A stretch of 64,000 bases of DNA, taken from the IMG/VR virus record IMGVR_UViG_3300037247_001096, positions 9,134 to 73,133 of that record. One strand, given 5' to 3'. The position numbers and the translations under genes are program-made. Below, piece by piece: positions 23,844-49,513 of this stretch; position 1 is the first letter of the stretch, and the number at the start of each line of letters is the position of its first letter. The notes below the pieces were generated by a model that saw nothing but the letters and a program-made list of their open reading frames with translations, had not been told where the DNA came from and ran no database searches. The stretch comes from a virus.

Positions 23844-25143
23844 GCAGAGAGACTCTCCAAGCCGTCGTGCAGGAGGTGCTCGGTATTGATATTCCAGAGT
23901 TTGGGGTCATGATGCTAGGCGTTCAACTCGCCTTGTGCGACCCCGACTTCTGGCAGAGCCAGGTCAGTCAAGAAGATGATGAGCAGGGAGGTTGGATGCA
24001 AGGCACAGCCGACCAACTTGCCGCCACCGTGAGGGAGGCATATGTCTTCGTGGAGGACACACTGGAGAACAAGTCATGAGACTACGAGAAGGAGAGCCCA
24101 ACCTGTCGGAGGTCGAACGGCGCCGCAGTCAGGGAGTGGCGACCCTGCACTACGCCGACGGTGATTACAGATGCAGATGGTTTACTCCAACATGGTTCAC
24201 CGACGACGAAGACAAGTGGTGGGATGTAGACGCTGACCAGGTGGTGGCGGAGTACGTCCCGGCGTTCCTGCGGGCACTCACAGAACAGCGTCAGGAGCCA
24301 GGAGAGCCACGTCACAGCCTCTATGAGGTCTATTGGGAGTCTGAGCTAGTATGGAGCCAGCAGGTTGATGACTACGAGCCTGTCGCGCTACCATCAGAAG
24401 GAGGTGTAACGTGAGCGATTTACGATTGACTTGCACGAGGTGCCGGAACACGTTTGAGGGGGGAGATGACCTACACCCCGGCAGTCCCTGCCCCGACTGC
24501 CTTCGGCACACCGTAATGTTACCACACAACCTAGACCGAGAGGGTATGGGGTTGGTCGGTACACTCATCCTCGGTGTGCCCGTCTTTGAAACGAGTGAAT
24601 GGGCGGACAGCACCCTTTGTGATGTAAACGACCGGCACTACCCCCACACATGGGAGGTAGACGAACAACGTTTTGTCTGCCCGGGTAGGCGGCTGGACAG
24701 CAGGGAGCGTACCTTCCACGTGCTACTGACGCAGGGGGAGAAGGGGCTGATTAAGGTGGCGGGAATCTCCCGTCAACCAGAGCCCATCAAAGAGACCTTC
24801 GAGACGTGGCACAACGAGGGGCGTACACTCTGGCTCCTCACCCTTACCGACCCCCAGGAGGGACTGCCTGGTGTGAAGCTAGAGCTCGTCACCCCAAAAT
24901 GCGAGTTCAGTACCCTCTTCGTCCCTTCCGACACGCCTGAAGAGGCCCACGATGATTAACATATGTGAAGCCCATAGCATAGAGCCCGACCCAAAGGGGG
25001 TACGAGAGTGCTACGGGGGGCTCTGGGTCTGCGCCGAGTGTAAGCGCACCATCTGTACCGGATTCGGTTGTGCCGACGAGTACCCCGACCTCTGCGACGA
25101 CTGCTGGTGGGAAAAGGAGAGGCCCCATGGAGAGAAAGAGTGA
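23831..25143 (+). CDS. Four coupled hypothetical genes (23831..24079, 24076..24414, 24411..24959, 24952..25143)
   Basis: Overlapping start and stop codons with RBSs. Confidence 0.65.
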
Positions 25144-25556
25144 CTACGAAGTCCCGGCTGTTAGCTAAGGCACACCCAAACTCCAGTGGCTGCGTAGAGT
25201 GGCAGGGAGCGCGAGACACGCGGGGCTATGGGAATATCTACGTAGAGGGTCGGACAGAGAAAACACATCGCCTGAGCTACCAGCTTCACAGCGGCCCGAT
25301 TGCTCCAGGACTGTCCGTATTACATCACTGCGATAACCCTCCATGCATCCTCCCCGCCCACTTGTTTCTCGGCACCCAGGCCGACAACATCCAAGACGCC
25401 CAGAAGAAAGGACGGCTCTGGAGTGGCCCTACTAAGGGCACTCATTGCCGGCGAGGGCACCCACTCACAGAGGGTAATACGTACAGTACGCCCTCAGGTA
25501 AACGTCGTTGCCGTACTTGCTACCTAGCCTGGCAGAGAGAAAGGAGGGCTTCTTGA
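25140..25556 (+). CDS. HNH homing endonuclease
   Basis: CVEWQG...GYG...HRLSY...VLHHCDNPPC..P.HL.LGT..DN, with a C-terminal THC..GH...C..C finger. Confidence 0.9.
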   Translation: MTTKSRLLAKAHPNSSGCVEWQGARDTRGYGNIYVEGRTEKTHRLSYQLHSGPIAPGLSVLHHCDNPPCILPAHLFLGTQADNIQDAQKKGRLWSGPTKGTHCRRGHPLTEGNTYSTPSGKRRCRTCYLAWQRERRAS

Positions 25557-26523: not shown

Positions 26524-27161
26524 AATTCAAGAGGAGGTGTAAGATGGAAACCTTAGGCAAGTTTGGGGAAGCAAAGACCCTAGGTGAGGGGCTAACCGTC
26601 TTCCCCTTTACGGACGGGAACTACTCCTACATCCGTATCCTGGGTGTCGTAGAGGGAAAACCCCTGAGCCTCACTATAGCCAACTACGCACCGCCTGGCA
26701 AGACGGGTGCCTTAGATGTAATAGTGGAGACTATCGCCGATGCCAAGGGCCTACTGGAGGAGATGGGGGGCTGCTTGGTGCGTTCCTCGCCCGGGAATAC
26801 GTACACGGATTGAAGTGGAGGTAGAGGATGAACGTTATCAACCCTTGCAGCTACAAGGGGGAGCACAAGGCTCATGACTGGAGAGGGGGCAGGTATGAGT
26901 TTCATTGTCGTGGTCTATCTACTCACGTCCTGGCTCTGGGCATGGGGGCTACTCTGGTTCCTTATCCAGCCACGGGGGAGGTAGTGGACTACCCCGTCCA
27001 CCGTGGGAAGCCGGAGCACCAGCGAGGGAGGAGTTGTCATGAACCCTTTTGCCTCTTAGTCTGGGCCGTCATTGACTTTAATATCGTGCTCAGTCTGCAA
27101 CTGACCAACGTGGCGAGGGAGCTGCTCTCGTGGCCCCTCGCACTCCAAGGAGGCACGCTTG

Positions 27162-27578
27162 ATGACCCGTCGAAGGAACCGCAGGCCAAGTCCCCCGAAC
27201 AGGAGGATGGTGCTGAAGTTCCTTCGCCTACGGGATAGGAATTGCCGATACTGCGGAGGGCCGGCGGAGGAGCAGGAGCATGTGGTACCACGGTGTAACG
27301 GCGGCGATGGTGCGGCGTTTACTAATCTGGTGATGTCCTGCAAGCGCTGCAACGCCGCAAAGGGCAGGGAGGCCGGGTTCACCATGAGGAGGAGCAGATT
27401 GTACTGGCACGGGCGCCTTGTCGCCCCGAAATCCATCTTCGGCGCCGAGCTCATGCGGGAGGTGGAGGCCCAGCGCCGGGCCAGGCAGCTTGCGCAAGGA
27501 CTGGGTTACCTGGTAGACTTCAAGAAGAGGAACGAGGAGAGAGTTCAGGAGGTGCATCATGACCAACCCTATCAGTAG
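27162..27578 (+). CDS. HNH endonuclease (McrA-like)
   Basis: RD..CRYCG...EHVVPRCNGG...NLVMSCKRCNAAKG. Confidence 0.9.
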   Translation: MTRRRNRRPSPPNRRMVLKFLRLRDRNCRYCGGPAEEQEHVVPRCNGGDGAAFTNLVMSCKRCNAAKGREAGFTMRRSRLYWHGRLVAPKSIFGAELMREVEAQRRARQLAQGLGYLVDFKKRNEERVQEVHHDQPYQ

Positions 27579-30129: not shown

Positions 30130-31422
30130 ATGACGGGGGTATTTTGGTGCGTGTCCCTAGTGCTGACCGACGAGGCATTCCTCGTTAAGTGGCACCACGC
30201 CCTGGTACCAGAATCTCTGTCGAGAGGGCCGCTACGTTTCCTCATGGCGGCCGCCCTCGAACACTGGGATTTGTATGGGAGGCGGATGGACTGGCCGTCG
30301 TTCCTGTACTGGGTAGATAACGGGGTGGAAGACCCAGACCTCCACGAAGAGTACCGCCAGATGTACTTAGACATCACCACTGCCTACGCCGTTACCGACA
30401 GCAGCCGCCCCACCGCCTGGGCTGCGGCTGAGGAGTGGGTGCAGAGCTACCACGTGGGTATGGCGCTTGACCGTGCCCGGGCTGCCCTCGTCGCCGGCGA
30501 CCGGGGTGGCGCCTTTTCCGAGCTCCTAGGGCTGCGGGAGGTGACGGGAGAGGAGAAGGCCGCCCCACCCATCAGCCTGGCGGACGCTCGTCTCGGTGAG
30601 CTGCTGAGGGCACGCCCCCAGGAGGAGGATGCCTGTCCTACGGGCATCGCCAAGGTGGACGAGCTCTGGGAGGGAGGTGTCTACCCGGGCGACCTGGCGG
30701 TGGTCGCAGCCGACACGAACGTGGGGAAGTCTCAGGTGCTATGCTACCTCGCCTCCTCTGCCTACTTCCACAACAAAAGAGTCCTCTACTATACATTTGA
30801 GCTCACCCAGACGCAGGTGGCGGAGCGAGTACTGACCGCTCTCTTCGAGTGCCCGAAGCAGGAACTGAATCCCGCCACCATAGTTGACGACCTGATGCGG
30901 TTCCGGGAGCGAAAGCAGATTGACAAGGGTTCCCTCGTCATTGACGATGGCGCCGCTATCCGCACTGTCGCCGACCTGGGGCGCCGGCTGGCGGAGGAGG
31001 ACATTGACCTGGTGCTTCTCGACTCGGCGGACGACCTCCAGCCAAGCAGGAACTACACCAAAGCGTATGAGGGTTTTGAAGAACTCTATCGTGACCTGCG
31101 GATTAATATCTGCCAGGGCCTGGAGCTACCAGTCTGGACATCGGTTCAGCTCAATCGTGACGCCGTAGAGAAGGCGAAGGTCAGCCTGAAGCATATGGGT
31201 GGTTCCTATGCCAAGGCCCAACGCCCACATCTCGTCCTCGGCATGAGCCAGACGCCCGACGAGCGGGACTTCGATCTGGGGCCACTCGTGAAGTTGCACA
31301 TACTCAAGGACACCATCCACGGTTCTAAGGGTAAGTGGTTCCGGCACCTGACGATGTTCGGCCGGGGGAGTAGAGGGTGGCCGGGATTCAGTTACTATCC
31401 CGACTGGGAGGATTTATCATGA
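30130..31422 (+). CDS. DnaB-like replicative helicase
   Basis: PTGI..VD...GG..PGDL, Walker A ADTNVGKS, YYTFE, LLDSAD, VWTSVQLNR. Confidence 0.92.
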   Translation: MTGVFWCVSLVLTDEAFLVKWHHALVPESLSRGPLRFLMAAALEHWDLYGRRMDWPSFLYWVDNGVEDPDLHEEYRQMYLDITTAYAVTDSSRPTAWAAAEEWVQSYHVGMALDRARAALVAGDRGGAFSELLGLREVTGEEKAAPPISLADARLGELLRARPQEEDACPTGIAKVDELWEGGVYPGDLAVVAADTNVGKSQVLCYLASSAYFHNKRVLYYTFELTQTQVAERVLTALFECPKQELNPATIVDDLMRFRERKQIDKGSLVIDDGAAIRTVADLGRRLAEEDIDLVLLDSADDLQPSRNYTKAYEGFEELYRDLRINICQGLELPVWTSVQLNRDAVEKAKVSLKHMGGSYAKAQRPHLVLGMSQTPDERDFDLGPLVKLHILKDTIHGSKGKWFRHLTMFGRGSRGWPGFSYYPDWEDLS

Positions 31423-31624
31423 CAAAATGGACAGTTGCCGAGGTACACCCAGGTCAGCTATACGAGTCAACCGACCCACGTGATGGCGGGCGCCGCGTTG
31501 AGGTTACGGAGATATTTGCTGGAGAGGTGGCAGTACGAAACATTCGCACAGGGCGAACAAGCTACATCCGCAAACAGAACCTTTGCTCAACGCTAGGCAA
31601 TCGGGGGTGGCGCCGGGTAGGTCG

Positions 31625-32581
31625 ATGAATACAAAGAAGCTGATCGCCGTTCTGGAAGACCACGGGTTCCACGTCTACCTTGCTGAGGGGGGCACTGAGT
31701 TGGTCATCGCCTGTCCCTTGTGTTTCGATGAGAAGCAGAAGCTCTACATCAGTGCCGCCACAGCCGCCTGGATTTGTTTTCGCTGCAATTCTCGTGGTGG
31801 GCTCCACTCCCTACTCCTGGAGGTGTGCGAGCTGTCACCTAATGAAGCGTATCCGATGGAGATGGCGCTCCTGGAGGGGAAGAAGCAGCGCCCTGCGCTC
31901 ATCGTCTCCAGGCCGGCGCCGGCCTCTACCATCGAGCTGCCCCCTGGCTTCATGCCCGACCAGGGAGACGGCCTTGCGGCCTGCTATCTCCAACACCGAT
32001 GTCTGGATGGCGACTGGGCACCAGAGTTGGGGATTGGTTACTGCCTCGTTGGATACTACCATCATCGTGTAATCGTGCCGGTCGTGACGCAGGGGGCGCT
32101 CCGTACCTTCGTCGCCCGCACCTGGTTGGAGGACGAGCCAAAGAAAGTATTGATGCCACCCGGCAGCCAGGCCGAGCGTGCGTTGTTTGGGTACGATAAC
32201 CTAGTCGGTGGGGAGACCGTCATCCTATGCGAAGGAGTATTTGACACCCTACGGATGTGGGCGGCAGGCTACCGTGAGGCCGTGGCCACCCTAGGCGCTC
32301 ATGTCACCGAGCTCCAGCGCAATCTAGTGAAACGTCTTGCCCCTAGGAGCGTTGTTCTTCTTAGAGACGCTGATGAGGCCGGCCGGGAGTCGGCCATCAA
32401 GGACGCCAAGGCGCTGAGTGAGGCGATGCTGAACGTGTCGATAGCAAACCTCCCCAACGGTACCGACCCGGGGTCTGCATCGCCGGTACAAATCAGGCGG
32501 GCACTTGACGAAGCCCGGCCGGTTGAGTTACAGTTAGGAATCGAGGCTTTGAAGGAGGCGCATCATGGCAGGAAAGACTAA
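31625..32581 (+). CDS. DNA primase (zinc finger + TOPRIM)
   Basis: CPLC...CFRC, CEGVFD, D.DEAG, DP. Confidence 0.92.
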   Translation: MNTKKLIAVLEDHGFHVYLAEGGTELVIACPLCFDEKQKLYISAATAAWICFRCNSRGGLHSLLLEVCELSPNEAYPMEMALLEGKKQRPALIVSRPAPASTIELPPGFMPDQGDGLAACYLQHRCLDGDWAPELGIGYCLVGYYHHRVIVPVVTQGALRTFVARTWLEDEPKKVLMPPGSQAERALFGYDNLVGGETVILCEGVFDTLRMWAAGYREAVATLGAHVTELQRNLVKRLAPRSVVLLRDADEAGRESAIKDAKALSEAMLNVSIANLPNGTDPGSASPVQIRRALDEARPVELQLGIEALKEAHHGRKD

Positions 32582-36366: not shown

Positions 36367-37346
36367 ACATTCTATTCGCAGGCTGCCTTCACGCTGCCGA
36401 CCGAGCCCCCGCTGGTCGGGTGGATGACTACATGTTCACCATCATGGACAAGCTGGAGAACATCGCCCGTCTCTGCGAGGAGTACAAGTGCGCCGCCGCT
36501 TGTTTCGCCGGTGACATTTTTCACATCAAACAGTCGAATCGCGTAAGTGATGCCCTCCGCCAGCAGCTCATCACAGCCTTCAAACGCTTTCCGTGTGAGG
36601 TACTGGTTACTGTTGGGAATCACGACCTCGGCCCTGATGGAGTAGAGAGCCTGCCCCGCCAACCCCTAGGGACGCTGGACAAAGCCGGGGCTGTGAAAGT
36701 CCTCCTCAAGATGACTGATACGCGCCTTGGCTTCTGGCTCGTACCCCGTCCCTACAGCGCTGCTGCCGAGGGGGTGTACGACGGTCAGACTGACCCATCA
36801 TACTACTCCCTAACTGAGGAAGAACAGGTTCTCATCGCCAAGAATCCGGCCCCTGTCATCGGCCTGGCCCATGGCTCCCTGCTGGCCCCCGGCGACAGCC
36901 GCCAATACCCCTACGTGAACGTCGACAAGATACCCGGCCTCGATAAGTACGACTTACTTATCTCTGGCCACCTGCATGAGTGCTTGGGTGTGGTGCCGGT
37001 GGGCAAGACCCTGTTCGCCAACCCCGGGTCTATCGGGCGGACGCGGCGAGACATCGCCTCCTATGCCCGCACGGTGGAGGTGCTGGTGGTTGACGTTCAG
37101 AAGGACGGTGTGACTGTTAAGGAGGTGCCGCTCCCTGGCGTGGCGCCGGCACTAGAGGTATTCGGCCGGCGGGAGCCTGATGATGCACCCGACCTACCCG
37201 AGGACGACATCACGAAGTTTGTGGAAGTCCTGGGCGAGGGTCTTAGAGCCGACGAACTCTCCATTCCCGACTTGCTTGCGGAGCTGGGGGACATCGAACC
37301 AGCGGTGAGGGCTGAGGTACAGCGCCTTCTCGAAGAAGTTCAATGA
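36363..37346 (+). CDS. Mre11/SbcD-like nuclease
   Basis: GCLH (variant of DxH), GDIFH, GNHD, AHG, GHLH, NPGS. Confidence 0.9.
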   Translation: MNILFAGCLHAADRAPAGRVDDYMFTIMDKLENIARLCEEYKCAAACFAGDIFHIKQSNRVSDALRQQLITAFKRFPCEVLVTVGNHDLGPDGVESLPRQPLGTLDKAGAVKVLLKMTDTRLGFWLVPRPYSAAAEGVYDGQTDPSYYSLTEEEQVLIAKNPAPVIGLAHGSLLAPGDSRQYPYVNVDKIPGLDKYDLLISGHLHECLGVVPVGKTLFANPGSIGRTRRDIASYARTVEVLVVDVQKDGVTVKEVPLPGVAPALEVFGRREPDDAPDLPEDDITKFVEVLGEGLRADELSIPDLLAELGDIEPAVRAEVQRLLEEVQ

Positions 37347-37801
37347 TGCAGCAAAGAGACAGTCGGGGACGTTACGTGCAGAGACCGGTTCAGGACAGAT
37401 TCTGGGCTAAAGTCGACGCACACTCCGAAGGGGGCTGCTGGCTTTGGGTGGGTGCAAAGACACCTAATGGGTATGGTCAGATTTGGGTGAATGGCTCCTT
37501 GGTGCTGGCCCACCGTTGGTCTTACGAGACCCTAAGAGGCCCTATCCCTCCAGACAAGGAGCTCGACCATCTCTGTCGGACATCTGCTTGTGTCAATCCC
37601 TTCCACCTAGAGGCCGTTACCCACCAAGAAAATATGAGACGGGGGGATGCGGGTGACAACATGCTCAAGAAAACACACTGTCCACAGAGGCATCCCTACA
37701 GTCTCGCCAACACCTACCGGTGGCGTAATACTCGCCGCTGTAAAGTGTGTAAACGAAATCAGCTCCGGCAGTGGCGAAGGCAGCAAGAGGAGGCAGCATG
37801 A
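37343..37801 (+). CDS. HNH homing endonuclease
   Basis: RFWAKVD..CWLW.G...GYG...AHR...LDHLCR..CVNP.HLE.VT..EN, with a THC finger. Confidence 0.92.
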   Translation: MMQQRDSRGRYVQRPVQDRFWAKVDAHSEGGCWLWVGAKTPNGYGQIWVNGSLVLAHRWSYETLRGPIPPDKELDHLCRTSACVNPFHLEAVTHQENMRRGDAGDNMLKKTHCPQRHPYSLANTYRWRNTRRCKVCKRNQLRQWRRQQEEAA

Positions 37802-39144: not shown

Positions 39145-39489
39145 ATGAGTCGCCGCAGCACAGTTGCTCAGAGTAAAGAAGCAGAACGTGAAGTTGCTCG
39201 CATCCTCCGAGGGAGGCGCCTGACTGCCGGGGAGTGGAAAGAGGCAGGAGATGCCGATGTGGTAGGCCCGGGGTGGAAAGCTCAGGTAAAGCATCGGTCT
39301 GGCGTGCCTGTCTACATCACTGAGGGAATGCAACAGATTCAAGAGGCGGTACAGGGCACCGAGGACTTGCCTCTACTAATTATCCGTACGAAGCCCGGTC
39401 GTGGCCGTGGGGCACAGACCTTTGTGGTTCTTACGGCAGAGGATTTCTTTCGTTGGCGTGAGGACAGTAGCCATGAGCACCCAGACTAA
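39145..39489 (+). CDS. Holliday junction resolvase (Hjc-like PD-(D/E)XK)
   Basis: EREVARIL...DV...QVKHR...PLLI. Confidence 0.75.
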   Translation: MSRRSTVAQSKEAEREVARILRGRRLTAGEWKEAGDADVVGPGWKAQVKHRSGVPVYITEGMQQIQEAVQGTEDLPLLIIRTKPGRGRGAQTFVVLTAEDFFRWREDSSHEHPD

Positions 39490-39967
39490 AGTTACAGTTA
39501 TGACAAAGAACCCGAAAACCGGCCGGCCATCCTTGTTTTCTCGGGTAGCTATACAGCGCCGAGCCCGTCCTGCTGGGGTGCTCGCGTCGTTGTTGCGCCC
39601 CGCTGCCGTCAATATGGTCAAGAGCCAGAAACTCCTGCCTGGCTTCTTTGCAGCAGGCGCATACCTGACCATATCGATTCAACATTTCTTGCCGAACAAT
39701 GTCTTTGCTCTTTTGCGACCTGTCATTATGGGCCTTCAGACACGGGGAGCACGGGAGTTTCCCCTCGACCGGAGTTGCCACACCGCAGTAAACACACAAC
39801 CCTGCCGCTTTTCGCTGATGCCAGTGCTCCATATGCTTGTCCGAACGGGCCTGCTGGCATTTTGTCCCGTACCATTTTCTCCCGGGCACTACAGGCTCTG
39901 CGCCGCATGACACACACAAACCTTCCGCTTGAAGACGTTTACGTCGCCGGTCTCGTGAGTTCTCCAT
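39431..39967 (-). CDS. HNH-like endonuclease (inverted orientation)
   Basis: Repeated GLCV.CG fingers and CACC...LALDHIDG.G...VLCHNCN. Its own promoter TTGACA-18-TATTAT lies at 40003..39974. Confidence 0.85.
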   Translation of the reverse strand: MENSRDRRRKRLQAEGLCVSCGAEPVVPGRKWYGTKCQQARSDKHMEHWHQRKAAGLCVYCGVATPVEGKLPCSPCLKAHNDRSQKSKDIVRQEMLNRYGQVCACCKEARQEFLALDHIDGSGAQQRREHPSRTGSALYSYPRKQGWPAGFRVLCHNCNFSLGAHGYCPHANERNPLP

Positions 39968-40021: not shown

Positions 40022-42682
40022 ATGACGGCGCCTAGAGACTGTAACCGCTGCCCTCAGTTAGCTCGGGTAAGGTCGTGTGTGGTTAACGGTTCCGGCCCGA
40101 CTGAGGCCAGAATCGCAATGGTCGGCGAAGGCCCGGGTAATTACGAAGACCAGAAGAGGAGGCCCTTCGTAGGGAAGGCCGGCCGGGTACTGCGCACCAT
40201 CGAGTGGGCTGCTGGTATCAACCAACACCTAGTCTACTACACCAACGCCACACGCTGTTGGGGTAAGCGAAACCCGAAGCCGGCGGAGGTGGACGCCTGC
40301 CACCATTTCCTCATTGAAGAGCTGCGGGAACTCAACCCCTCGGTCATTGTGGCGCTTGGCGGCGCCGCTCTCCGTTCCCTCTACCGCCCCGGCGTAACCG
40401 TTGGCTCGGTGATGGGCTTCACCCTATACAACGACGAGCTCCCTGGCATCCCCGTCATCCCAACCTACCACCCCTCATACATCATGCGCGGGCATTGGGA
40501 TGAGGTGGCGTTGGTACTGGCTCACTTCCGCAAGGCAAAGCGCATCGCCGAGGAAGGGGGTATCGAAGAGAAGCTGGGATCGTACATGGGTATCACCACA
40601 CTAGAGGAGCTGCGGGCGCTCCGAGATTACCTACTTTCTGATGCCGTTTCTATACTGGCCCTAGATACTGAGACTTGCGGTTTATCGTGGATGGACTCCG
40701 AACTCCTCTGCATCAGCTTCTCGGGTGAGGAGGGAGTCGGGTATAGCGTCCCCATCCTCCACCGGGGCGAGCGCACCGTCATGAAGACGAAGGGGCGGGG
40801 CAAGAACCGTAGGGAAGTGCCCGAACAGGAGTGGTGGCCTGTCCCCTACTGGGACTTGGAGAAGGAGATGCCCGAGGTGATCAGTATCCTCGACGAAATC
40901 CTCCGCTCCGACAAACCCAAGGCGGGTCAGAACATCGGGTTTGATTTGAGAATGTTGGAGCGCCGGCCTGATGAGGCGGTGGTGACGGCCCAGACTGCAC
41001 TCGGCTTCTACGTTAACAACGTACAGCACGACACCAAAATGCTGAGCTCACTACTGTCTGAGGTGAGCCCGGCCAACTTGACGGTGCTCACAGCCTACCA
41101 TACGGATATGCCCTATTACGAGGCTGAGATTTCCGGGATGAAATCCAAGATGTGGCACGTCCCTGACAAGGAATTATGGGAATACGGAGGAGCCGATGTC
41201 GATGTCGTGCAGCGGCTGGTGCCCCGGCTCTACCCCCAGGTGCAGGCTGAAAAGTCGGACTGGGTGTACGAAAACATCAGCATCCCCCTCATCCGCTGCG
41301 CCACGAAGCTAGAGGAGCGGGGCGTCTACATCGACCAGGAGTATTTCGATAAGCTCTGCTTGTACTACAAGGACGACCTGGCGAGGAAGAAGGCGGAGCT
41401 AAATGAGACGGTTGGGCGTGAGGTGAAGCATCCTAGCCACTACCAGCACGTACAGAAACTCGTCTTCAAAGACCTGGGCCTGCCCCTCACCGCCCAGCCC
41501 ACCGATGGCGCCCGCAAGGAGTGTGACAAGTGTCGGAAGACGCAAAGTCCCTGCTCACCGGCCCATGCCTCAACATCGGCCGACGCCTTGGCGGAGTTGA
41601 ACGAGCGGGCACCCCACCCGGTGCTACCTCTCCTCGTTGACATTCGCCACGTCGAGAAGTTCGGTAGTACCTACTTAGATGGGGGTGAGGGGGGTGGGTT
41701 CCGTGTTCATATTCGGGCAGACAGCCGCATTCACGGTCGCTGGACTGCCGGAGGCGCTCGGGCAACAGGGCGCTTTACTTGCGAGGAACCCGCCCTTATG
41801 ACTCTACCCAAGGAAATTAGGATTCATTCGGACGAGTATGACATCCACTCTGACGATGCCATTCGCGCCATGTGCGCTGCTCCTCCAGGATACGGGGTAC
41901 TCAACGCTGACTGGGGCCAGGCCGAGGTTTGGGTCATGGCCTACGAGACGGGAGATGAGACCCTCCTCAAGTTGCTGATAGATGGAACGGACATCCACGC
42001 CTACGTTGCCCGGGAGCTCTGCAAGTTGGGGGTCTCTACTAGGTTCCCCCATGAATCCGTGGATGACACGCTCTCCCTAGAGGAGTGGAGGAGCAAGTAC
42101 AAGGAAGTGCGTGACAGGGGCAAGACCTTTGTGTTCGGGATGAACTATGGCCTAACCGACGAAGGAGCTGGCCAGCGCCTAGGCTGCTCGGCAGAGGAGG
42201 CGTCGCCACTCCTGTCACACTACATCCAGAGTATCTTTCCTTCGATGGGATCATACTTCATTCGGATTCGTGAAGAGATGTTCCAGCGAGGGTCGGTCGC
42301 TGACCGCTTTGGGCGCCGGCGGCACTTCGCCGAGGTGCCCATCCTAGCGGCGCTGCGCTACCGGGGAGACCTGGAGGGGGCCATCCGCCAGGGGTACAAC
42401 ATGCCCATCCAGGGCGGGGCACACGACCTTCACTCCCTGGCGCACATCGCCACTGAGAGGGAGCTGTCGTCGTTCGTCCAGCCCGTAATTGAGATGCACG
42501 ACTCCCTTGCCATGTACGCCCCTCTAGACCGACTCGAAGAGGGTGGGGCTGCTATCAAGGAGCTGTGGGGCCACGTGGCCCGAGATACCATCCTACCCTC
42601 CGGTGAGCGGCTTGCTTGGGAGATTCCCGTCGAGATACAATGGGGTAGGAGCTTTGGAGAGCTGGAGGCGCACATTGAGTAA
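40022..42682 (+). CDS. polA: Family A DNA polymerase with an N-terminal family-4 uracil-DNA glycosylase domain (SPO1-like)
   Basis: UDG motifs GEGPG..ED..PFVG.AG and HPSY; exonuclease motifs DTET, NIGFD, YGGAD; polymerase motifs A DWGQAE, B R...KTFVFGMNYG and C MHDS. Confidence 0.95.
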   Translation: MTAPRDCNRCPQLARVRSCVVNGSGPTEARIAMVGEGPGNYEDQKRRPFVGKAGRVLRTIEWAAGINQHLVYYTNATRCWGKRNPKPAEVDACHHFLIEELRELNPSVIVALGGAALRSLYRPGVTVGSVMGFTLYNDELPGIPVIPTYHPSYIMRGHWDEVALVLAHFRKAKRIAEEGGIEEKLGSYMGITTLEELRALRDYLLSDAVSILALDTETCGLSWMDSELLCISFSGEEGVGYSVPILHRGERTVMKTKGRGKNRREVPEQEWWPVPYWDLEKEMPEVISILDEILRSDKPKAGQNIGFDLRMLERRPDEAVVTAQTALGFYVNNVQHDTKMLSSLLSEVSPANLTVLTAYHTDMPYYEAEISGMKSKMWHVPDKELWEYGGADVDVVQRLVPRLYPQVQAEKSDWVYENISIPLIRCATKLEERGVYIDQEYFDKLCLYYKDDLARKKAELNETVGREVKHPSHYQHVQKLVFKDLGLPLTAQPTDGARKECDKCRKTQSPCSPAHASTSADALAELNERAPHPVLPLLVDIRHVEKFGSTYLDGGEGGGFRVHIRADSRIHGRWTAGGARATGRFTCEEPALMTLPKEIRIHSDEYDIHSDDAIRAMCAAPPGYGVLNADWGQAEVWVMAYETGDETLLKLLIDGTDIHAYVARELCKLGVSTRFPHESVDDTLSLEEWRSKYKEVRDRGKTFVFGMNYGLTDEGAGQRLGCSAEEASPLLSHYIQSIFPSMGSYFIRIREEMFQRGSVADRFGRRRHFAEVPILAALRYRGDLEGAIRQGYNMPIQGGAHDLHSLAHIATERELSSFVQPVIEMHDSLAMYAPLDRLEEGGAAIKELWGHVARDTILPSGERLAWEIPVEIQWGRSFGELEAHIE

Positions 42683-42819
42683 CCACCGACCCCCACGCCA
42701 CCTCGAATGCGGGCGGCTGCATTGGCCGGGAGCGTGCCCCCAGGAAATCGGTTTGAAGATACGCATTTGGGATAAACTCTCAACACTGGCAGAGTGGGTG
42801 CACCCTGAAAGGAATGGTC

Positions 42820-43461
42820 ATGAGTGACGACAATGCCCTTGTCCCATCAGACGGCCGCACGGCCGCCCGTGTCCGAGGGGAGGATGGGCTACTCCCTGCT
42901 CAGCGAGAGTACCTTGCGGTATACTCAGATACGGGTTCGCCTGCGGAAGCCTTACGCCGGCTCCGCCTCACGCAAGCCCGAGTCACCCGCTGGCTCCGAG
43001 AAGACCCCGCCTTCCTCAGAGTCCACGAAGACCTCTTCAAGGGATCTTACAATGCGACTAAGGCGCGGTTCGGGGCGCTTCAGGAGCGGCTGCCTGACCT
43101 GGCACTAGACCTCATGCAGGCCCATAAAGTGGTAGTGGTAAAGCATATCTGCACCGAGTGCGGTAACAAGCAGGACGTGGCGGTGGACACTACGAACGAT
43201 ACAGTACGTGCACGGATGTGGTCTGACCTGATGAAGGCAGCGGGTCACCTCAAGGACGTGCGCCGGATAGAGGGCGACATGCTCACTACCCACTTCACTG
43301 CCGGGCAGCGCATCGCCCTGGAGAGACTGAGGCGTGGTGGTGACATCAGTGTTCAGCAATATAAAGAGCTGGAATCTATGGGCGCTCTCGAAGACTTGAA
43401 GAGGTACGACGGCTCGGGGGTGGTGGAAGACGAAGTTGCCGATGCCGCAAATGGCCTGTAA
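42820..43461 (+). CDS. HTH protein, possible terminase small subunit
   Basis: Q..YL..Y..TG...A...V.RW...DPAF pattern typical of TerS-like HTHs, plus a CxxC. Confidence 0.55.
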   Translation: MSDDNALVPSDGRTAARVRGEDGLLPAQREYLAVYSDTGSPAEALRRLRLTQARVTRWLREDPAFLRVHEDLFKGSYNATKARFGALQERLPDLALDLMQAHKVVVVKHICTECGNKQDVAVDTTNDTVRARMWSDLMKAAGHLKDVRRIEGDMLTTHFTAGQRIALERLRRGGDISVQQYKELESMGALEDLKRYDGSGVVEDEVADAANGL

Positions 43462-43507
43462 TGTACAATAGATAATTCCGTTGTAGGTAGTGAAAGGAAG
43501 GTGCATC

Positions 43508-43735
43508 ATGGCATTCCTACCGGTAGTCTCATCCACATTGACCGCAGTGAAGTACGACCGGGAACGAGGCCGGTTGGTCATCCAGTTCCCCGGTGAGAGC
43601 TTCTACGAGTACGATGGAGTCCCGGGGGAGGTGGTGCTCGACTTCCTCTTCTCCGACTCTATTGGTGGCGCGTTCAGCACTCTCATGAAAAAGGGAGGAT
43701 TCCAGTACCGTCGCATCGCAGCTAAGGACGCCTAG
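43508..43735 (+). CDS. KTSC domain protein
   Basis: V.SS.L..V.YD....L.I.F....YEY.GVP......S.G..F. Confidence 0.88.
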   Translation: MAFLPVVSSTLTAVKYDRERGRLVIQFPGESFYEYDGVPGEVVLDFLFSDSIGGAFSTLMKKGGFQYRRIAAKDA

Positions 43736-43746
43736 GGAGGGCCTTG

Positions 43747-44040
43747 ATGGTATGGGAAAACGAAAACGGAAGCGACGTACAAAAGTGGCCCACGTGGAGC
43801 ACCCGCCGAAACTGGGCGCGAAACAACTATCTGAAGTACGGCATCCAGTGGAAGCTCCAGAAGTTCCTGGTGATGCTGGCGAACCTGACGGTGCTGAACG
43901 ACCTGATAGAGGAGGAGGGCGGGGAGGTGCTGCTGACGCCCAAACAGAGGAGGGAGTGGAAGGGGTGGTACGAATCATTTCGACCGACCCATCCAGTGGG
44001 CCGTCCGAAGAGCGACTCGGGGAGTGGCCATACAGAATAG
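43747..44040 (+). CDS. Hypothetical protein
   Basis: GGAGG RBS and protein-like composition. It is preferred over the overlapping N-terminal extension of the next ORF. Confidence 0.6.
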   Translation: MVWENENGSDVQKWPTWSTRRNWARNNYLKYGIQWKLQKFLVMLANLTVLNDLIEEEGGEVLLTPKQRREWKGWYESFRPTHPVGRPKSDSGSGHTE

Positions 44041-45290
44041 TCAAGACCCCTGAAGACCTACTTGCCTTGGGAGAGTGGCTCCAGGTACTGGGGGGCGAGG
44101 TCGAAAAGACCCCGGTGGGTATCGCCGCCACCAGCAGTGAGCTGGCTCTGGCGACGAAGGCTCAGGGGTGGCTACTCCGCGCCGACGTTGACCCAGAGAC
44201 CCATGCTAGACTCGCGGGTAGTGCGGGCCATGCTGTCCTTCGCAAACTACTCACAGCGGAGCGTACAGCGCCGGCCCTGGTGACCCGGGATACGGGTTAC
44301 CTCATCACTGCCTTAGAAAACTGGTTGGGAGATTACGACCGCAATGCTCTCTTGCCCAACATCGTCCACGATATGAAGGTATTGGAGTACGTGACTGGTC
44401 GAGGTATTGCCGTGGGTATGACGGCCCTCAAGGATGCTTTGGACTGTGCCGTCGTAGGGCCTGGGATGGCGCTAGAGGCCCCACGCTTCTACCAGCAGGT
44501 GGGTATGCCCCTAGCGCGTCACAATGCGCAGACACATGTCATCTACGTAGACCCCGAGGTACCCGCGCAAGCGGCTGGGGCTAAGCCGTGGAGCCGCTGG
44601 ACGCTCACCTACGATTACCTGCTGTTCCGGGTGCTGGCCCACTACACACGCGACCCCACGATGACCCGATGGTTCGAGGAGGGTAGAAGCCCCCTACAGG
44701 AGTTCAGTAGCTACCTGGAACTCAACTCGAAAGAGGCCACAGCATTCCTCTTGTGGATGGTCTGCGGTGAGGAGGAGGAGCTTGTCAGCCGGTACTACCC
44801 CGACTGGGCCACCCTCATGCCAGAGGCACCTCAGCTTATCAAGGCGTCCCGAGTTGACAAGACCCTTCCCAACCTACGCCTGGGGCTCATCAGGCTGACC
44901 GATCAGTACGCCATCTCCCGCAAGACCGAGACTTTGTACGGGCGCCGCTCACCGTGGGGCCTGAAGCCTCAGGAGCTCCTGCACTTCGTCATCATGGGGT
45001 CGGTGAATGACCTTTTAGATGTCGTAGTGGCGTCCATCATCAGGCTGGGAAGTGACGCGCATTGGCTAGTCCCAGAGGCCAGCACGAAATACAACCACTG
45101 GTTAAGAGCACAGGTTGTTGGCTATAGTAAAGAGGAGCCTATGGATTGGCAGCGAAAATTGGAAGAACTCGGGCAGCTCAACAACCCTCTGGGAGCGGTC
45201 TCCCTTGAACCGAGAGTGAGTGTCGAAGTTGCACGGCGTGGCGTCGATACCCTCCGCGCCCGCATCAAGGAGCTGGGAGGTGAGGAATGA
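43965..45290 (+). CDS. Degenerate family A polymerase-like protein
   Basis: FRVLAHYTRDPTM..WF..G.SP, TETLYGRR and VIMGSVNDLL resemble PolA segments, but the catalytic Asp of motifs A and C is not found. Confidence 0.65.
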   Translation: MVRIISTDPSSGPSEERLGEWPYRIVKTPEDLLALGEWLQVLGGEVEKTPVGIAATSSELALATKAQGWLLRADVDPETHARLAGSAGHAVLRKLLTAERTAPALVTRDTGYLITALENWLGDYDRNALLPNIVHDMKVLEYVTGRGIAVGMTALKDALDCAVVGPGMALEAPRFYQQVGMPLARHNAQTHVIYVDPEVPAQAAGAKPWSRWTLTYDYLLFRVLAHYTRDPTMTRWFEEGRSPLQEFSSYLELNSKEATAFLLWMVCGEEEELVSRYYPDWATLMPEAPQLIKASRVDKTLPNLRLGLIRLTDQYAISRKTETLYGRRSPWGLKPQELLHFVIMGSVNDLLDVVVASIIRLGSDAHWLVPEASTKYNHWLRAQVVGYSKEEPMDWQRKLEELGQLNNPLGAVSLEPRVSVEVARRGVDTLRARIKELGGEE

Positions 45291-46864: not shown

Positions 46865-47302
46865 ATGCCCCCTAAGTGCACCAATCGCCAGCCCACGTTC
46901 CGTATAAACATGCACGTCCCCGCTACCTCTTGGCACCCCCACGCAGACAAGACGTTTGAGGTGAAGAAGCCGACTGAGTGGGAGGCGTGGGCTCACGCAA
47001 TGCGGGCCATAGTGCTGGAGCTCTCTCACGGCAATGCCCGCCTGATGCTGGGATACTGGAGCGACGCATTAAATGTGCTCCCTCCCGAGGTCAGGAAGGC
47101 CCTCATCCAGGCCATTGCTGCTGGATACGGGCTCCAAATCGCCCCTGCGGAGGACGACCCCAAGACCATAGAGATTTCGCTGGTACAGCGGTATGAACCT
47201 TTGGTCGGTGAGAAGAAGACTGAATCGGGGATTGTCCTTCCCAAGACGCCAGGCTCGAAACTTGTCCTCCCGGGACAGAAAGAGTATACTGAAAGGAAAT
47301 AG
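46865..47302 (+). CDS. Hypothetical protein
   Basis: 145-aa ORF in the operon, with a KTESGIVLP tail. Confidence 0.6.
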   Translation: MPPKCTNRQPTFRINMHVPATSWHPHADKTFEVKKPTEWEAWAHAMRAIVLELSHGNARLMLGYWSDALNVLPPEVRKALIQAIAAGYGLQIAPAEDDPKTIEISLVQRYEPLVGEKKTESGIVLPKTPGSKLVLPGQKEYTERK

Positions 47303-47303
47303 T

Positions 47304-48452
47304 ATGGCGAAACAAAAGTGCGCCCACACCACATGCTCCAACGTCGCTGGAGAGAGGTCGAAATACTGTGGGGATACTTGCCGCAAGAGAGCTGCCCAAC
47401 GAAGTTATGAGCGCCGACAAGCACCAAAGAACAAAACCACGACCGCTGCCGTCGACCAGGGCATGACGCCCGAAGAGTTCGAGACGCGGGCCACACGGCT
47501 CCTAGAGGAGCGCATTCCGCTTCCCCCTGTACCGGCCAAGATTCAGGCGACCCAAGTGGTGGACATGGGGTTCGATACTCCCCAACATGCAGTGGCGTGC
47601 TTCTCCGACTATCACTTTGGGGGGAAGGTAGACGCCCAAGTGACGGGGGGTATTGGGGGGTACGACGTGGCAACGGCCCGCTACCGGCTGGCCGACTGGC
47701 GAGACGGGGTGCTGCGGTTTACCCAGATGATGCAGACCACACTACCGGTACCTGTACTCCACATCCTTGCCCTCGGTGACGACATGGAGGGCAACGGTCA
47801 TATGTATGGGTCACAGGGTATGGAGATGGAGCTGTCCCCCTACTTTCAGTTCCTTGGCTTCGTGGCCGACATGACGGATGCGCTGGTCTCCCTACAAGAA
47901 CGCTTCGAGCGGATCAATGTGGTAAAGGTGTTTGGGAATCACGGCCGCCTCGCTGGGCGCAAGAGGGACGCCTACGACCCGGACAACTATGAGCTCATGG
48001 CGTGGCAGACTATTGCCGCCCGGTGCGAATTAGCGGCGCCTGGGAAGTTTACGTTTGAAATCTCTCCTGCCTTCTTCCAACTCGTAGACATCCTGGGGTA
48101 CTCCTTCTACATGCGTCACGGCGATGGTGTAAACCTACACAGTACCTACGTTGGAGTCCTAGATAACAAACTAGCGATGAATAGCATTCTAGGGGAAGTC
48201 ATCAACTACATGGTGCTAGGTCACCACCACACAGCTTCGGAGAGGGAAGAGGAGATTGAGGGGGACATCATCTCCAATGGGTGCTTCGTGGGGCCGTCCC
48301 TACTGGCGCTGAAGATGCGCCGGCCACGGGCAAACCGCCCCAGCCAGGAGATGTTCTTCGTGCATCCTCGGAAAGGTTTAACTCACCGCCACCGCATCCA
48401 TCTCGCTTCATTAGACGAGGTGCGCTCAATCAACAAGGTTGAGCTAACGTGA
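47304..48452 (+). CDS. Calcineurin-like metallophosphoesterase
   Basis: SDYHFG, LGDDMEG, GNHGR, HGD, GHHH. Confidence 0.88.
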   Translation: MAKQKCAHTTCSNVAGERSKYCGDTCRKRAAQRSYERRQAPKNKTTTAAVDQGMTPEEFETRATRLLEERIPLPPVPAKIQATQVVDMGFDTPQHAVACFSDYHFGGKVDAQVTGGIGGYDVATARYRLADWRDGVLRFTQMMQTTLPVPVLHILALGDDMEGNGHMYGSQGMEMELSPYFQFLGFVADMTDALVSLQERFERINVVKVFGNHGRLAGRKRDAYDPDNYELMAWQTIAARCELAAPGKFTFEISPAFFQLVDILGYSFYMRHGDGVNLHSTYVGVLDNKLAMNSILGEVINYMVLGHHHTASEREEEIEGDIISNGCFVGPSLLALKMRRPRANRPSQEMFFVHPRKGLTHRHRIHLASLDEVRSINKVELT

Positions 48453-48499
48453 AACGAACCTAGGTTCCTTGCGTTGTAGCTGAATAGGAGGTGCCGACT

Positions 48500-48898
48500 A
48501 TGCCCAGAAAAGGCTTTGTGTATATCGCTGGCCCCTACCGTGGGCCGCTGGGTACCCACGACCACTCTGAATACTTCGTGGTCGATGCCCACATCAACAG
48601 AGCACGGGAGTGGGCAGCGAAGTTTGCCCGGGTGGGGATACCGTTCTTCTGCCCTCATCTGAACAGTGCCCACTTCGAGATCATCACCCCCGATGTGCCT
48701 GCTGGGTTCTGGTTGGATATGAACTTAGAGGTTCTGGCCAAAGCAAGTGCTCTCTTCCTCATGCCCGGGTGGGGTAACAGCGACGGAGCCATCAAGGAAC
48801 AATTGTTTGCTGTCGACCGTCACATTACCATCTTCTACCTCCACCAATTTGATTACCTCATGCGCTGGTGGAGAGAGGAGGCAGAAGATGCCGACTGA
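48500..48898 (+). CDS. Nucleoside deoxyribosyltransferase-like protein (DUF4406/DUF1937 type)
   Basis: VYIAGPY...CPH...PGW.NS.GA.KE. Confidence 0.75.
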   Translation: MPRKGFVYIAGPYRGPLGTHDHSEYFVVDAHINRAREWAAKFARVGIPFFCPHLNSAHFEIITPDVPAGFWLDMNLEVLAKASALFLMPGWGNSDGAIKEQLFAVDRHITIFYLHQFDYLMRWWREEAEDAD

Positions 48899-49090: not shown

Positions 49091-49513
49091 ATGAAAGTAT
49101 ATCTCATAGGGTCACTACGCAACCCCCAGGTTCCTCTGCTCGGGAAGCGCATTCGGGCACTGGGCTTCGACGTGTTCGATGATTGGTTCGGAGCCGGGGA
49201 AATTGCAGATGATTCGTGGCAGGCTTATGAGGAAGCCCGTGGGCGGCACTATGGAGAGGCGCTCTATGGTCGGGCAGCCGAGAACATCTTTCAATTCGAC
49301 CTGCGCCACCTCAACTCCTCAGACCTTGGTGTGCTGATGTTACCAGCGGGGAAGTCAGGACACCTTGAGTTGGGGTACCTCATTGGACAGGGTAAGCCGG
49401 GACTCGTCCTTTTTCCTGAGGTTCCTTCCAGATGGGACGTGATGTACCAGCTCGCAGACGGTGTGTTCTTCCACCCAGACGCTCTGCTAGTGAGGCTAAA
49501 GGCACTATTGTGA
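49091..49513 (+). CDS. Nucleoside 2-deoxyribosyltransferase-like protein
   Basis: VYLIGS...FD...D...SD...PAGKSGHLELGY. Confidence 0.8.
   Translation: MKVYLIGSLRNPQVPLLGKRIRALGFDVFDDWFGAGEIADDSWQAYEEARGRHYGEALYGRAAENIFQFDLRHLNSSDLGVLMLPAGKSGHLELGYLIGQGKPGLVLFPEVPSRWDVMYQLADGVFFHPDALLVRLKALL

Follow-up and report, generated by a model that had tools for sequence, protein, structure and literature searches.

A predicted inactive paralogue of family-A DNA polymerase beside an active-looking polymerase in uncultured phages

Why should a phage carry, just downstream of a complete family-A DNA polymerase (PolA), a second gene that resembles a PolA stripped of its catalytic residues? This question is raised by psPol, a pseudo-polymerase gene at 43965..45290 on the + strand of a 64,000-nucleotide (nt) stretch of viral DNA (positions 9134..73133 of the IMG/VR virus record IMGVR_UViG_3300037247_001096), hereafter called the window. 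It encodes 441 amino acids (aa) from a GTG codon and lies 1.3 kb downstream of, and on the same strand as, a gene for an active-looking polymerase of 886 aa (40022..42682, +), in which a uracil-DNA glycosylase (UDG) of family 4, a 3′-5′ exonuclease and a family-A polymerase are predicted to be joined (UDG-exo-PolA). An initial annotation, made by eye from the sequence, had taken psPol for a repurposed, catalytically dead family-A polymerase beside an active one. The analysis described here upholds that view: psPol has the predicted fold of PolA, lacks an intact catalytic set and evolves under purifying selection. What it does in the phage is a separate matter, on which we offer a tentative reading. 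Residue numbers of psPol are those of a 512-aa open reading frame (ORF) starting at 43752, from which 71 is subtracted to give the numbering of the 441-aa protein; reference residues of PolA follow the numbering of Escherichia coli Pol I.

Fold and family of psPol

How can psPol be tied to PolA? The protein has zero matches in Pfam, PHROGs and NCBIfam and stays below the gathering score of PF00476 (34.3 bits). PDB sequences searched by phmmer with the single sequence and by hmmsearch with a 40-sequence profile returned chance rows only, BLASTP against the neighbouring PolA gave nothing significant (best E 0.37), and tblastn of psPol and of two distant members of its family (P0108 and P0088) against 50,697 cultured-phage records gave no match. 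The link to PolA comes from structure prediction and from profiles. An AlphaFold2 (AF2) model built from 40 homologues has a mean predicted local distance difference test score (pLDDT) of 83.4 and a predicted template modelling score (pTM) of 0.80, and its 351 residues with a pLDDT of at least 90 all lie within 85-497. When this model was compared with PDB by Foldseek, the Klenow fragment came out on top (E 1.0e-10) and 181 of the 500 matches counted had E ≤0.001; the 50 matches listed are all family-A enzymes (Klenow, Taq, Bst, M. smegmatis Pol1, Pol theta, Pol nu and the apicoplast polymerase). Alignment by VIA-align to large fragments of PolA gave Z scores of 19-21 over 343-359 residues, including Z 21.0 with 6vdd_A (359 aligned residues, root-mean-square deviation (rmsd) 6.5) and Z 19.7 with the Bst polymerase 3hpo_A (355 aligned residues, rmsd 6.0). 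Model residues 90..497 span 297..874 of the Bst chain, and therefore both the exonuclease-type and the polymerase domains are covered. Among predicted viral structures (BFVD), the matches are all ordinary viral PolAs of 500-1300 aa, and a close thumb-less twin of psPol is absent from them.

The protein belongs to a family of its own. A word-indexed search gathered 46 homologues, and an exhaustive profile search of 1.84 billion proteins yielded 80 cluster representatives, 78 of them at E ≤1e-10. A profile of 101 psPol sequences was matched by hhalign to an alignment of PolAs, with E. coli Pol I as its first sequence, with a probability of 96.6% (E 5e-10, 144 columns), psPol 284-432 being placed on E. 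coli 703-866 so that motifs A, B and 6 are covered; in global mode the match rose to 97.9% (E 2.8e-12). A hidden Markov model (HMM) of the family, run against 7,067 six-frame ORFs, matched the true PolA ORFs of five unrelated viral loci (E 1.1e-4 to 1.8e-4), and its alignments pair motif A as hhalign does, ungapped. Sub-threshold PF00476 matches of 12.5-17.9 bits occur in 6 of 42 distant members, at profile positions 151-198, which are the motif A part. An Atlas search gave leads only, at a score of 0.88 (under the 0.9 mark), to clusters auto-named 'family A palm domain-containing protein', suggesting that automatic annotation already tags some relatives in this way. Judged by the model, psPol is a paralogue of family-A DNA polymerase with a Klenow-like fold, in which an exonuclease-like domain, the palm core and the fingers appear to be kept; the kinship with PolA first drawn by eye is thus borne out by structural comparison.

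Segments and residues lost and kept

Which parts of the polymerase have gone? The string 'FYQQVGMPL' of psPol pairs with 'VFENIEMPL' of E. coli, placing P253 on P532, a residue invariant in PolAs. From this proline to T286 in motif A the spacing is 33 residues, as against 173 for E. coli P532-D705, and about 140 residues must therefore be missing. What stands in their place (E. coli ~540-695) is a low-confidence loop (residues 260-282, 44529..44597, +; pLDDT 68-71). The missing segment comprises the thumb, whose deletion had been proposed at the outset, and motifs 1/2 with K635, T639, Y640, R668 and the NLQNIP segment, which hold the primer-template.

Motifs A, B, 5 and 6 of psPol are collinear with those of PolA; counts given below are of columns over 103 psPol family sequences. 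In the degenerate motif A (WTLTYDYLLFRVLAHYTRDP; 44598..44657, +), T286 corresponds to the catalytic D705, Y287 to Y706, D288 to S707, L291 to E710 and D301 to D719. An acid (D/E) occupies the D705 column in 5 of 103 sequences and the E710 column in none of the 103. This Asp-to-Thr replacement, as read in the initial annotation, is found alike by the 101-sequence profile and by the HMM alignments to true PolAs, whereas a narrower 40-sequence profile had pointed to D288. Motif B had been reported as not found. Its key residues are indeed gone, K758 and Y766 being replaced and R754 falling in a gap, but a degenerate remnant of the motif and its O-helix can be traced (EATAFLLWMVCGE; 44733..44771, +), in which T330 stands for K758, L334 for F762, C338 for Y766 and G339 for G767; 'EATAFLLWMVCG' pairs here with 'SAKAINFGLIYG', and G767 is the sole residue kept. 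Lys or Arg is present in the K758 column in 9 of 103 sequences, and the Y766 column holds Cys in 57 and Leu in 20 of the 103, with no Tyr among the residues listed.

Further on, the motifs TETLYGRR and GSVNDLLDV (44925..45023, +) are retained as structural elements, with R398, G416 and D420 at the places of R821, G850 and D854. The 101-sequence profile pairs TETLYGRR and FVIMGSVNDLL with VETLDGRR and NAPMQGTAADI of E. coli, in agreement with the first reading of these strings. R398 is Arg in 100 of 103 sequences, D420 is D/E in 101, D301 is D/E in all 103, and Y287 is kept in 99; in the exonuclease-like domain, the D207 column has D/E in 96. The residues of PolA that contact DNA, R841, N845 and Q849, have become Q407, H411 and M415. 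At the presumed place of motif C, the model has a hairpin (AHWLVPEASTKYNHWLR; 45057..45107, +) of two strands (436-439 and 452-459) with a 12-residue loop between them, the local sequence being AHWLVPE. The hairpin has no conserved carboxylate: across columns 433-452, D/E reaches at most 38 of 103 (E442), so that no conserved acid is found where motif C is expected, in line with the absence of its HDE noted at the start.

From the alignments, the residues kept by psPol appear to be those that are also invariant yet non-catalytic in true PolAs, and those lost to be the catalytic, dNTP-binding (deoxynucleoside triphosphate-binding) and DNA-contacting ones. The residue-level alignment, inspected for intact catalytic aspartates, contains no intact catalytic set. 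With neither a thumb nor primer-terminus motifs, and with both catalytic aspartates and the residues for dNTP binding gone, psPol is predicted to be unable to polymerise DNA by the canonical two-metal mechanism.

The N-terminal part of the fold (residues 85-245, 44004..44486, +) is a vestigial 3′-5′ exonuclease-like domain, which the VIA alignment enters at residue 90 (Bst 297). It is collinear with E. coli 328-540 in a weak hhalign alignment (15%, E 0.0017), where 'WPYRIVKTPEDLLALGEWL' stands opposite 'DNYVTILDEETLKAWIAKL'. The strand corresponding to ExoI reads PVGIAA, with no conserved acid, and the exonuclease residues D355, E357, D424 and D501 fall, in this same weak alignment, on K119, P121, L184 and D228. 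Exonuclease-like remnants had been claimed at the outset; of the strings quoted for them, VHDMKVLEY falls, in the weak alignment, on the non-catalytic RHDMDSLAE rather than on ExoII. The string 'NIVHD' was considered as an ExoII motif and dropped, as the weak alignment gives it no support.

Conservation, gene model and neighbourhood

Is psPol a gene in decay? In 9 of 9 viral loci, with psPol identities of 27-69%, the polymerase is followed on one strand by a 215-aa protein, a KTSC-domain protein and psPol, and the ORF of psPol is intact in all nine. In the window, the 215-aa protein (42814..43461, +) has no family match, and the KTSC-domain protein (43490..43735, +; 81 aa) matches PF13619 (E 6.2e-12). 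The KTSC gene also precedes psPol in three distant loci (L011-L013), in one of which (L011) an intein-bearing UDG-exo-PolA is followed by the KTSC protein and then psPol; the context of the most distant clades is drawn from three loci of one metagenome scan, and single proteins and 4-sequence alignments of these clades retrieved nothing in viral contigs. A search starting from the polymerase found 67 viral loci that encode a PolA relative. Twelve of them have a PolA at least 44% identical; psPol lies at most 2.5 kb downstream in 10, and in the remaining two the sequence stops 2.2 kb and 0.8 kb past PolA. In all 10 informative related loci, therefore, psPol stands downstream of an intact UDG-exo-PolA.

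The ratio of nonsynonymous to synonymous divergence (dN/dS) was calculated by the Nei-Gojobori method on the psPol core outside a gene overlap described below, with finite dS in both genes for 16 of 36 pairs. The median over these 16 pairs is 0.152 for psPol and 0.131 for PolA. Values for psPol range from 0.125 to 0.26, and from 0.125 to 0.174 in the four closest pairs; only the closest carry weight, because most pairs are near dS saturation, and the two closest give 0.125 (dS 0.39) and 0.148 (dS 0.52). The psPol core is under purifying selection similar to that on the active polymerase. The low core dN/dS, the conserved place downstream of PolA and the 80 cluster representatives together argue that psPol is not a decaying pseudogene, and in related phages they fit the repurposed protein first proposed.

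Where does psPol begin? The longest ORF at the locus runs from an ATG at 43752 to 45290 and would encode 512 aa. The extra 71 codons are probably no part of the psPol protein, and the long ORF is probably an artefact, because the model has a pLDDT below 50 at residues 7-17 and 23-82, because a conserved gene in the +1 frame overlaps the extension, because the extension is interrupted by stops in two of nine genomes (L006 and L008), and because psPol of the distant relatives L011-L013 begins right at the fold, with related small ORFs preceding it. Homologues with an ATG at the column of 43965 occur in the family alignment. GTG 43965 is the best-supported start, which leaves the intact ORF of about 440 aa first described, with all the strings quoted for it lying in the + strand ORF that ends at 45290.

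The overlapping gene (43747..44040, +) encodes 97 aa in the +1 frame and shares 76 nt with the beginning of psPol. Its frame is open throughout the 9 genomes compared (the window and eight close loci), and its sequence is conserved, …WPTASTRLNWARNNY…KLQKFLVMLMNLTALNDLIEEEGGEALLTPKQ…VGRPK…, with VGRPK as a C-terminal tail. Across the overlapping stretch, dN/dS is about 0.1-0.6 in the +1 frame versus about 0.5-1.7 in the frame of psPol (frame 0). AF2 folds the product into three confident helices (pLDDT of at least 90 at 61 of 97 residues); family libraries gave no match, nor did a fold search at E ≤0.001. Synonymous divergence is unusually low in both frames of this stretch: the proportion of synonymous differences (pS) at 43752..43964 in frame 0 is 0.24-0.41, against 0.6-0.8 in the psPol core for comparable pairs. 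The long frame-0 form is still open in 7 of 9 genomes, both frames beginning at a nearly identical start, though none of the observations calls for such a form, and dual coding or a constraint at the nucleotide level may act across 43752..43964. Two earlier ideas were given up. One, of a basic tail and disordered linker at the N-terminus that might bind a clamp or DNA, was rejected because this stretch is the out-of-frame translation of the 97-aa gene; and a -1 frameshift joining the 97-aa gene to psPol was dropped after a by-eye, not systematic, look at 43965-44040 had shown no slippery heptamer. The gene model is corrected here, and the overlapping gene had formerly been hidden by the 512-aa ORF.

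The upstream enzyme looks complete. UDG-exo-PolA matches PF03167 (E 5e-26), PF01612 and PF00476 (E 3e-43), and its predicted UDG domain, at the N-terminus, contains the strings 'GEGPG' and 'HPS', which we take to be family-4 UDG motifs. D630, E635, R697, K701, Y709, R789, N793, Q797, H826 and D827 are invariant among its relatives, and the exonuclease residues D215, E217, D308, Y388 and D392 are conserved among them. With all its polymerase residues invariant, it is predicted to be active, as had been supposed. Its motif C reads 'EMHDSL', with Ser instead of Glu after the catalytic Asp, and this S828 is nearly invariant in the clade. It is at most 24% identical to any of the 50,697 cultured-phage records.

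Both genes are surrounded by replication genes, namely those for a UvsW-like helicase, a DnaB-like helicase (30130..31422), a primase (31583..32581), a UvsX-like recombinase, SbcCD-like proteins and an exonuclease. The strand and the block of psPol are theirs, and the structural genes lie on the other strand at 52-64 kb. The genome is a single contig of 73,133 nt, of which the window is 9134..73133. Its final 100 nt recur at positions 28-127, so that the ends overlap by about 127 nt, which suggests a complete, circularly assembled phage genome. The idea that the phage is N4-like and has a giant virion RNA polymerase was dropped, the other 9.1 kb of the genome containing no ORF longer than about 405 aa. 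Farther downstream, a phrog_284 exonuclease gene (47193..48452) precedes two nucleoside 2-deoxyribosyltransferase-like genes on the + strand (48491..48898, phrog_355; 49091..49513, phrog_12607), which are conserved in most related loci; the pair may point to nucleotide or DNA-base metabolism.

Inteins and HNH endonucleases occur in or near these genes. Inteins are known mainly from replication proteins. Two members of the psPol family, P0084 and P0087, carry canonical inteins (Cys…His-Asn, then Thr or Cys), the insertion point of one directly following Y287, within the vestigial motif A, and that of the other lying just past the ExoIII-like segment. Among PolA relatives, P0136, P0142, P0143, P0151 and P0155 have inteins with similar ends at D215|T216 (ExoI), at TGRFT|C and near residue 369, and P0138 has a 180-residue insertion near 369 without intein ends. 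In L006 (8222..9946, P0005), an HNH endonuclease (PF13392) lies upstream of and in frame with psPol, giving an ORF of 559-574 aa. The replication module of the window contains four dispersed genes for HNH endonucleases (25068..25556, 27159..27578 and 37343..37801 on the + strand, 39431..39967 on the - strand); the last of these, on the opposite strand just upstream of PolA, is found in only some related loci (L003 and L007).

What psPol may do

What would a phage gain from a polymerase that cannot polymerise? The reading we favour, with a confidence that stops somewhat short of even, is that psPol is a non-catalytic subunit or scaffold of the phage replisome serving the active PolA, the helicase-primase or both. 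Its position, its strand, its co-inheritance with the polymerase, its polymerase-like constraint and the surrounding genes point to such a role, and the inteins of one type in the psPol family and in PolA relatives speak for it too. Selection keeps psPol in a fixed cassette downstream of the intact UDG-exo-PolA, made up of the 215-aa protein, the KTSC protein, the 97-aa three-helix protein and psPol, and uncultured phages of one clade, about 50-75 kb in size, have this cassette within their replication module; the action of psPol would be through protein binding, with the neighbouring PolA and/or the helicase-primase as the presumed partner. A more specific form of the idea, possible though doubtful, is that a family-A replicase is here made of two proteins, with psPol as its obligatory non-catalytic subunit docking on UDG-exo-PolA, possibly together with the KTSC and 97-aa proteins, to provide processivity or coupling to the helicase-primase.

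This role in the replisome, and with it any physical partner of psPol, is something we infer; co-folding of psPol 85-497 with the polymerase domain alone of PolA (412-886) was neutral, with scores of 0.00, 0.32 and 0.00. Several observations weigh against a replisome scaffold. The elements by which PolA binds duplex DNA are missing. The family is acidic (pI, the isoelectric point, below 7 in 99 of 100 cores, median 5.3), which is no clue to a binding partner. Where PolA identity is 33% or less, none of 55 loci has psPol, with flanks of up to 9 kb per side, and it is therefore no general requirement of the UDG-PolA type of polymerase; it is fixed in one clade rather than in UDG-PolA phages at large. 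The most conserved residues, Y287, L290, W335, T394, Y396, R398, G416 and D420, fall in motifs that line the old active-site cleft, and this conservation could mean ligand binding rather than scaffolding. Finally, the 40-sequence profile set D288 on D705 by way of a 2-residue gap (53%, E 1.4e-4). D288 itself is D/E in 65 of 103 sequences and 90 of 103 have an acid at either 288 or 289, and for these reasons psPol may have a residual metal or ligand site. The notion of D288 as a retained catalytic Asp has been superseded by the 101-sequence profile and the HMM alignments to true PolAs; on S707, at the start of a helix, D288 plausibly has a capping role. Even if it did bind a metal, psPol would still be without the second aspartate and the residues for dNTP binding.

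Could the protein be a residual enzyme or a ligand sensor, with a remodelled palm-fingers cleft or the exonuclease-like domain binding a nucleotide, a metal or a small molecule for a reaction or a regulation other than templated synthesis? That the strongest conservation is in cleft-lining motifs (Y287, R398 and D420), together with the acid at 288 or 289, the near-constant D207 and the intein exactly after Y287, speaks in its favour. We nevertheless regard it as quite unlikely: R398, D420 and D301 may merely hold the fold, because the PolA residues with which they align, R821, D854 and D719, are invariant yet non-catalytic; D288 could be the capping residue just mentioned; and conservation of the catalytic type is seen neither near motif C nor at the positions of K758, R754 and Y766. 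Or is psPol directed at the host? As a look-alike, it might act on a host factor by which family-A polymerases are recognised or bound, such as a defence sensor or a replication or repair protein, and titrate or block it. Narrowly distributed phage accessory genes often serve in counter-defence, and psPol is clade-specific (0 of the 55 more distant loci), acidic and devoid of the DNA-binding thumb. Such a function in anti-defence or host takeover is unlikely, however, for a gene that is fixed rather than variable in 10 of 10 informative loci of its clade, that has a dN/dS as low as the polymerase's with no sign of arms-race diversification, and that sits in the replication module instead of an early or accessory region.

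A role outside replication, whether as a regulator that binds DNA to control middle or late genes or as a structural or morphogenetic protein, would have a precedent in inactivated polymerases that have taken up other roles (PMC4304020, as far as that source is used here), and the 215-aa and 97-aa partners in the cassette are without known function. But psPol lies on the strand and in the block of the replication genes, the structural genes being elsewhere on the other strand, and the canonical DNA-binding parts of the fold are deleted, which makes such an exaptation very unlikely. That psPol is a functionless decaying duplicate, or resembles PolA by chance, is scarcely conceivable: although no curated family matches it and BLASTP against the neighbouring PolA gives no significant hit, all nine viral loci have an intact ORF, dN/dS stays within the low range found for the 16 pairs, and the 351 confidently modelled residues, the Z scores of 19-21 and the hhalign E of 5e-10 leave little to coincidence.

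How does psPol compare with known polymerases? It shares with Klenow, Bst Pol I, Taq and M. smegmatis Pol1 the fold, the collinear motifs A, B, 5 and 6, and the residues R821, G850, D854 and D719; it differs from them in lacking some 140 residues, in the replacement of D705, E710, K758, Y766, R841, N845, Q849 and the motif C acids, and in the gap at R754. With UDG-exo-PolA of the window it has in common the fold family, the strand and inheritance within the clade, but it has neither the catalytic residue set nor the UDG domain. PolAs have been sorted into 19 clusters, in every one of which the catalytic residues are strictly conserved, and UDG-PolA fusions are known from N4-like (cluster 17), SPO1, SP-10 and SP-15 phages (Czernecki et al., 2023; PMC10201439); the parts of that paper drawn on here describe no dead PolA paralogue or subfamily. 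The same parts report a split PolA in some T7-like phages, with the exonuclease and the polymerase as two genes (PMC10201439). The present locus likewise has two adjacent PolA-related genes. In a split PolA, however, each half brings an active domain that the other lacks, whereas here the upstream gene is complete and psPol contains both domains in dead form.

Inactivated relatives of polymerases have been described elsewhere. A 2026 survey of bacterial polymerases, in the portions consulted, describes PolA groups whose exonuclease domains are inactive and Y-family proteins that are inactivated, and no inactivated PolA polymerase domain (PMC12926913). One of the Y-family proteins is ImuB, an inactive paralogue in the ImuA-ImuB-DnaE2 system, which resembles psPol in having a polymerase fold with a disrupted active site and in standing beside an active polymerase (PMC12926913, same portions). 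Unlike psPol, ImuB belongs to another polymerase family and to bacterial SOS mutagenesis, not to a phage replication module. Its role is that of an adaptor. The archaeal inactivated PolB family and the inactive polymerase-exonuclease module of Pol epsilon are, like psPol, conserved and selected dead modules beside an active polymerase, but as far as the passages used here go they are of family B, cellular and often fused to the active module, and psPol is of family A, from phages and a separate gene (PMC2527604; PMC2669801). For the poxvirus protein F12, an inactivated polymerase, a structural or morphogenetic role has been proposed, according to the part of the source used here (PMC4304020). 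A search of full-text literature, supplements not covered, found no paper on an inactivated family-A polymerase paralogue.

psPol is thus a polymerase-derived pseudoenzyme, a kind already known, here in family A and in phages, and the protein family that it defines, with 80 cluster representatives, is named in no curated library. For families B and Y, dead paralogues in the service of active polymerases are already established. If psPol does prove to be an obligatory subunit of a two-protein replicase, it would give family A its first holoenzyme organised around a pseudo-polymerase, a parallel to ImuB and to the inactive modules of Pol epsilon. Standing beside an intact PolA, psPol offers a testable case of a replicative family-A enzyme gaining a partner by duplication and inactivation.

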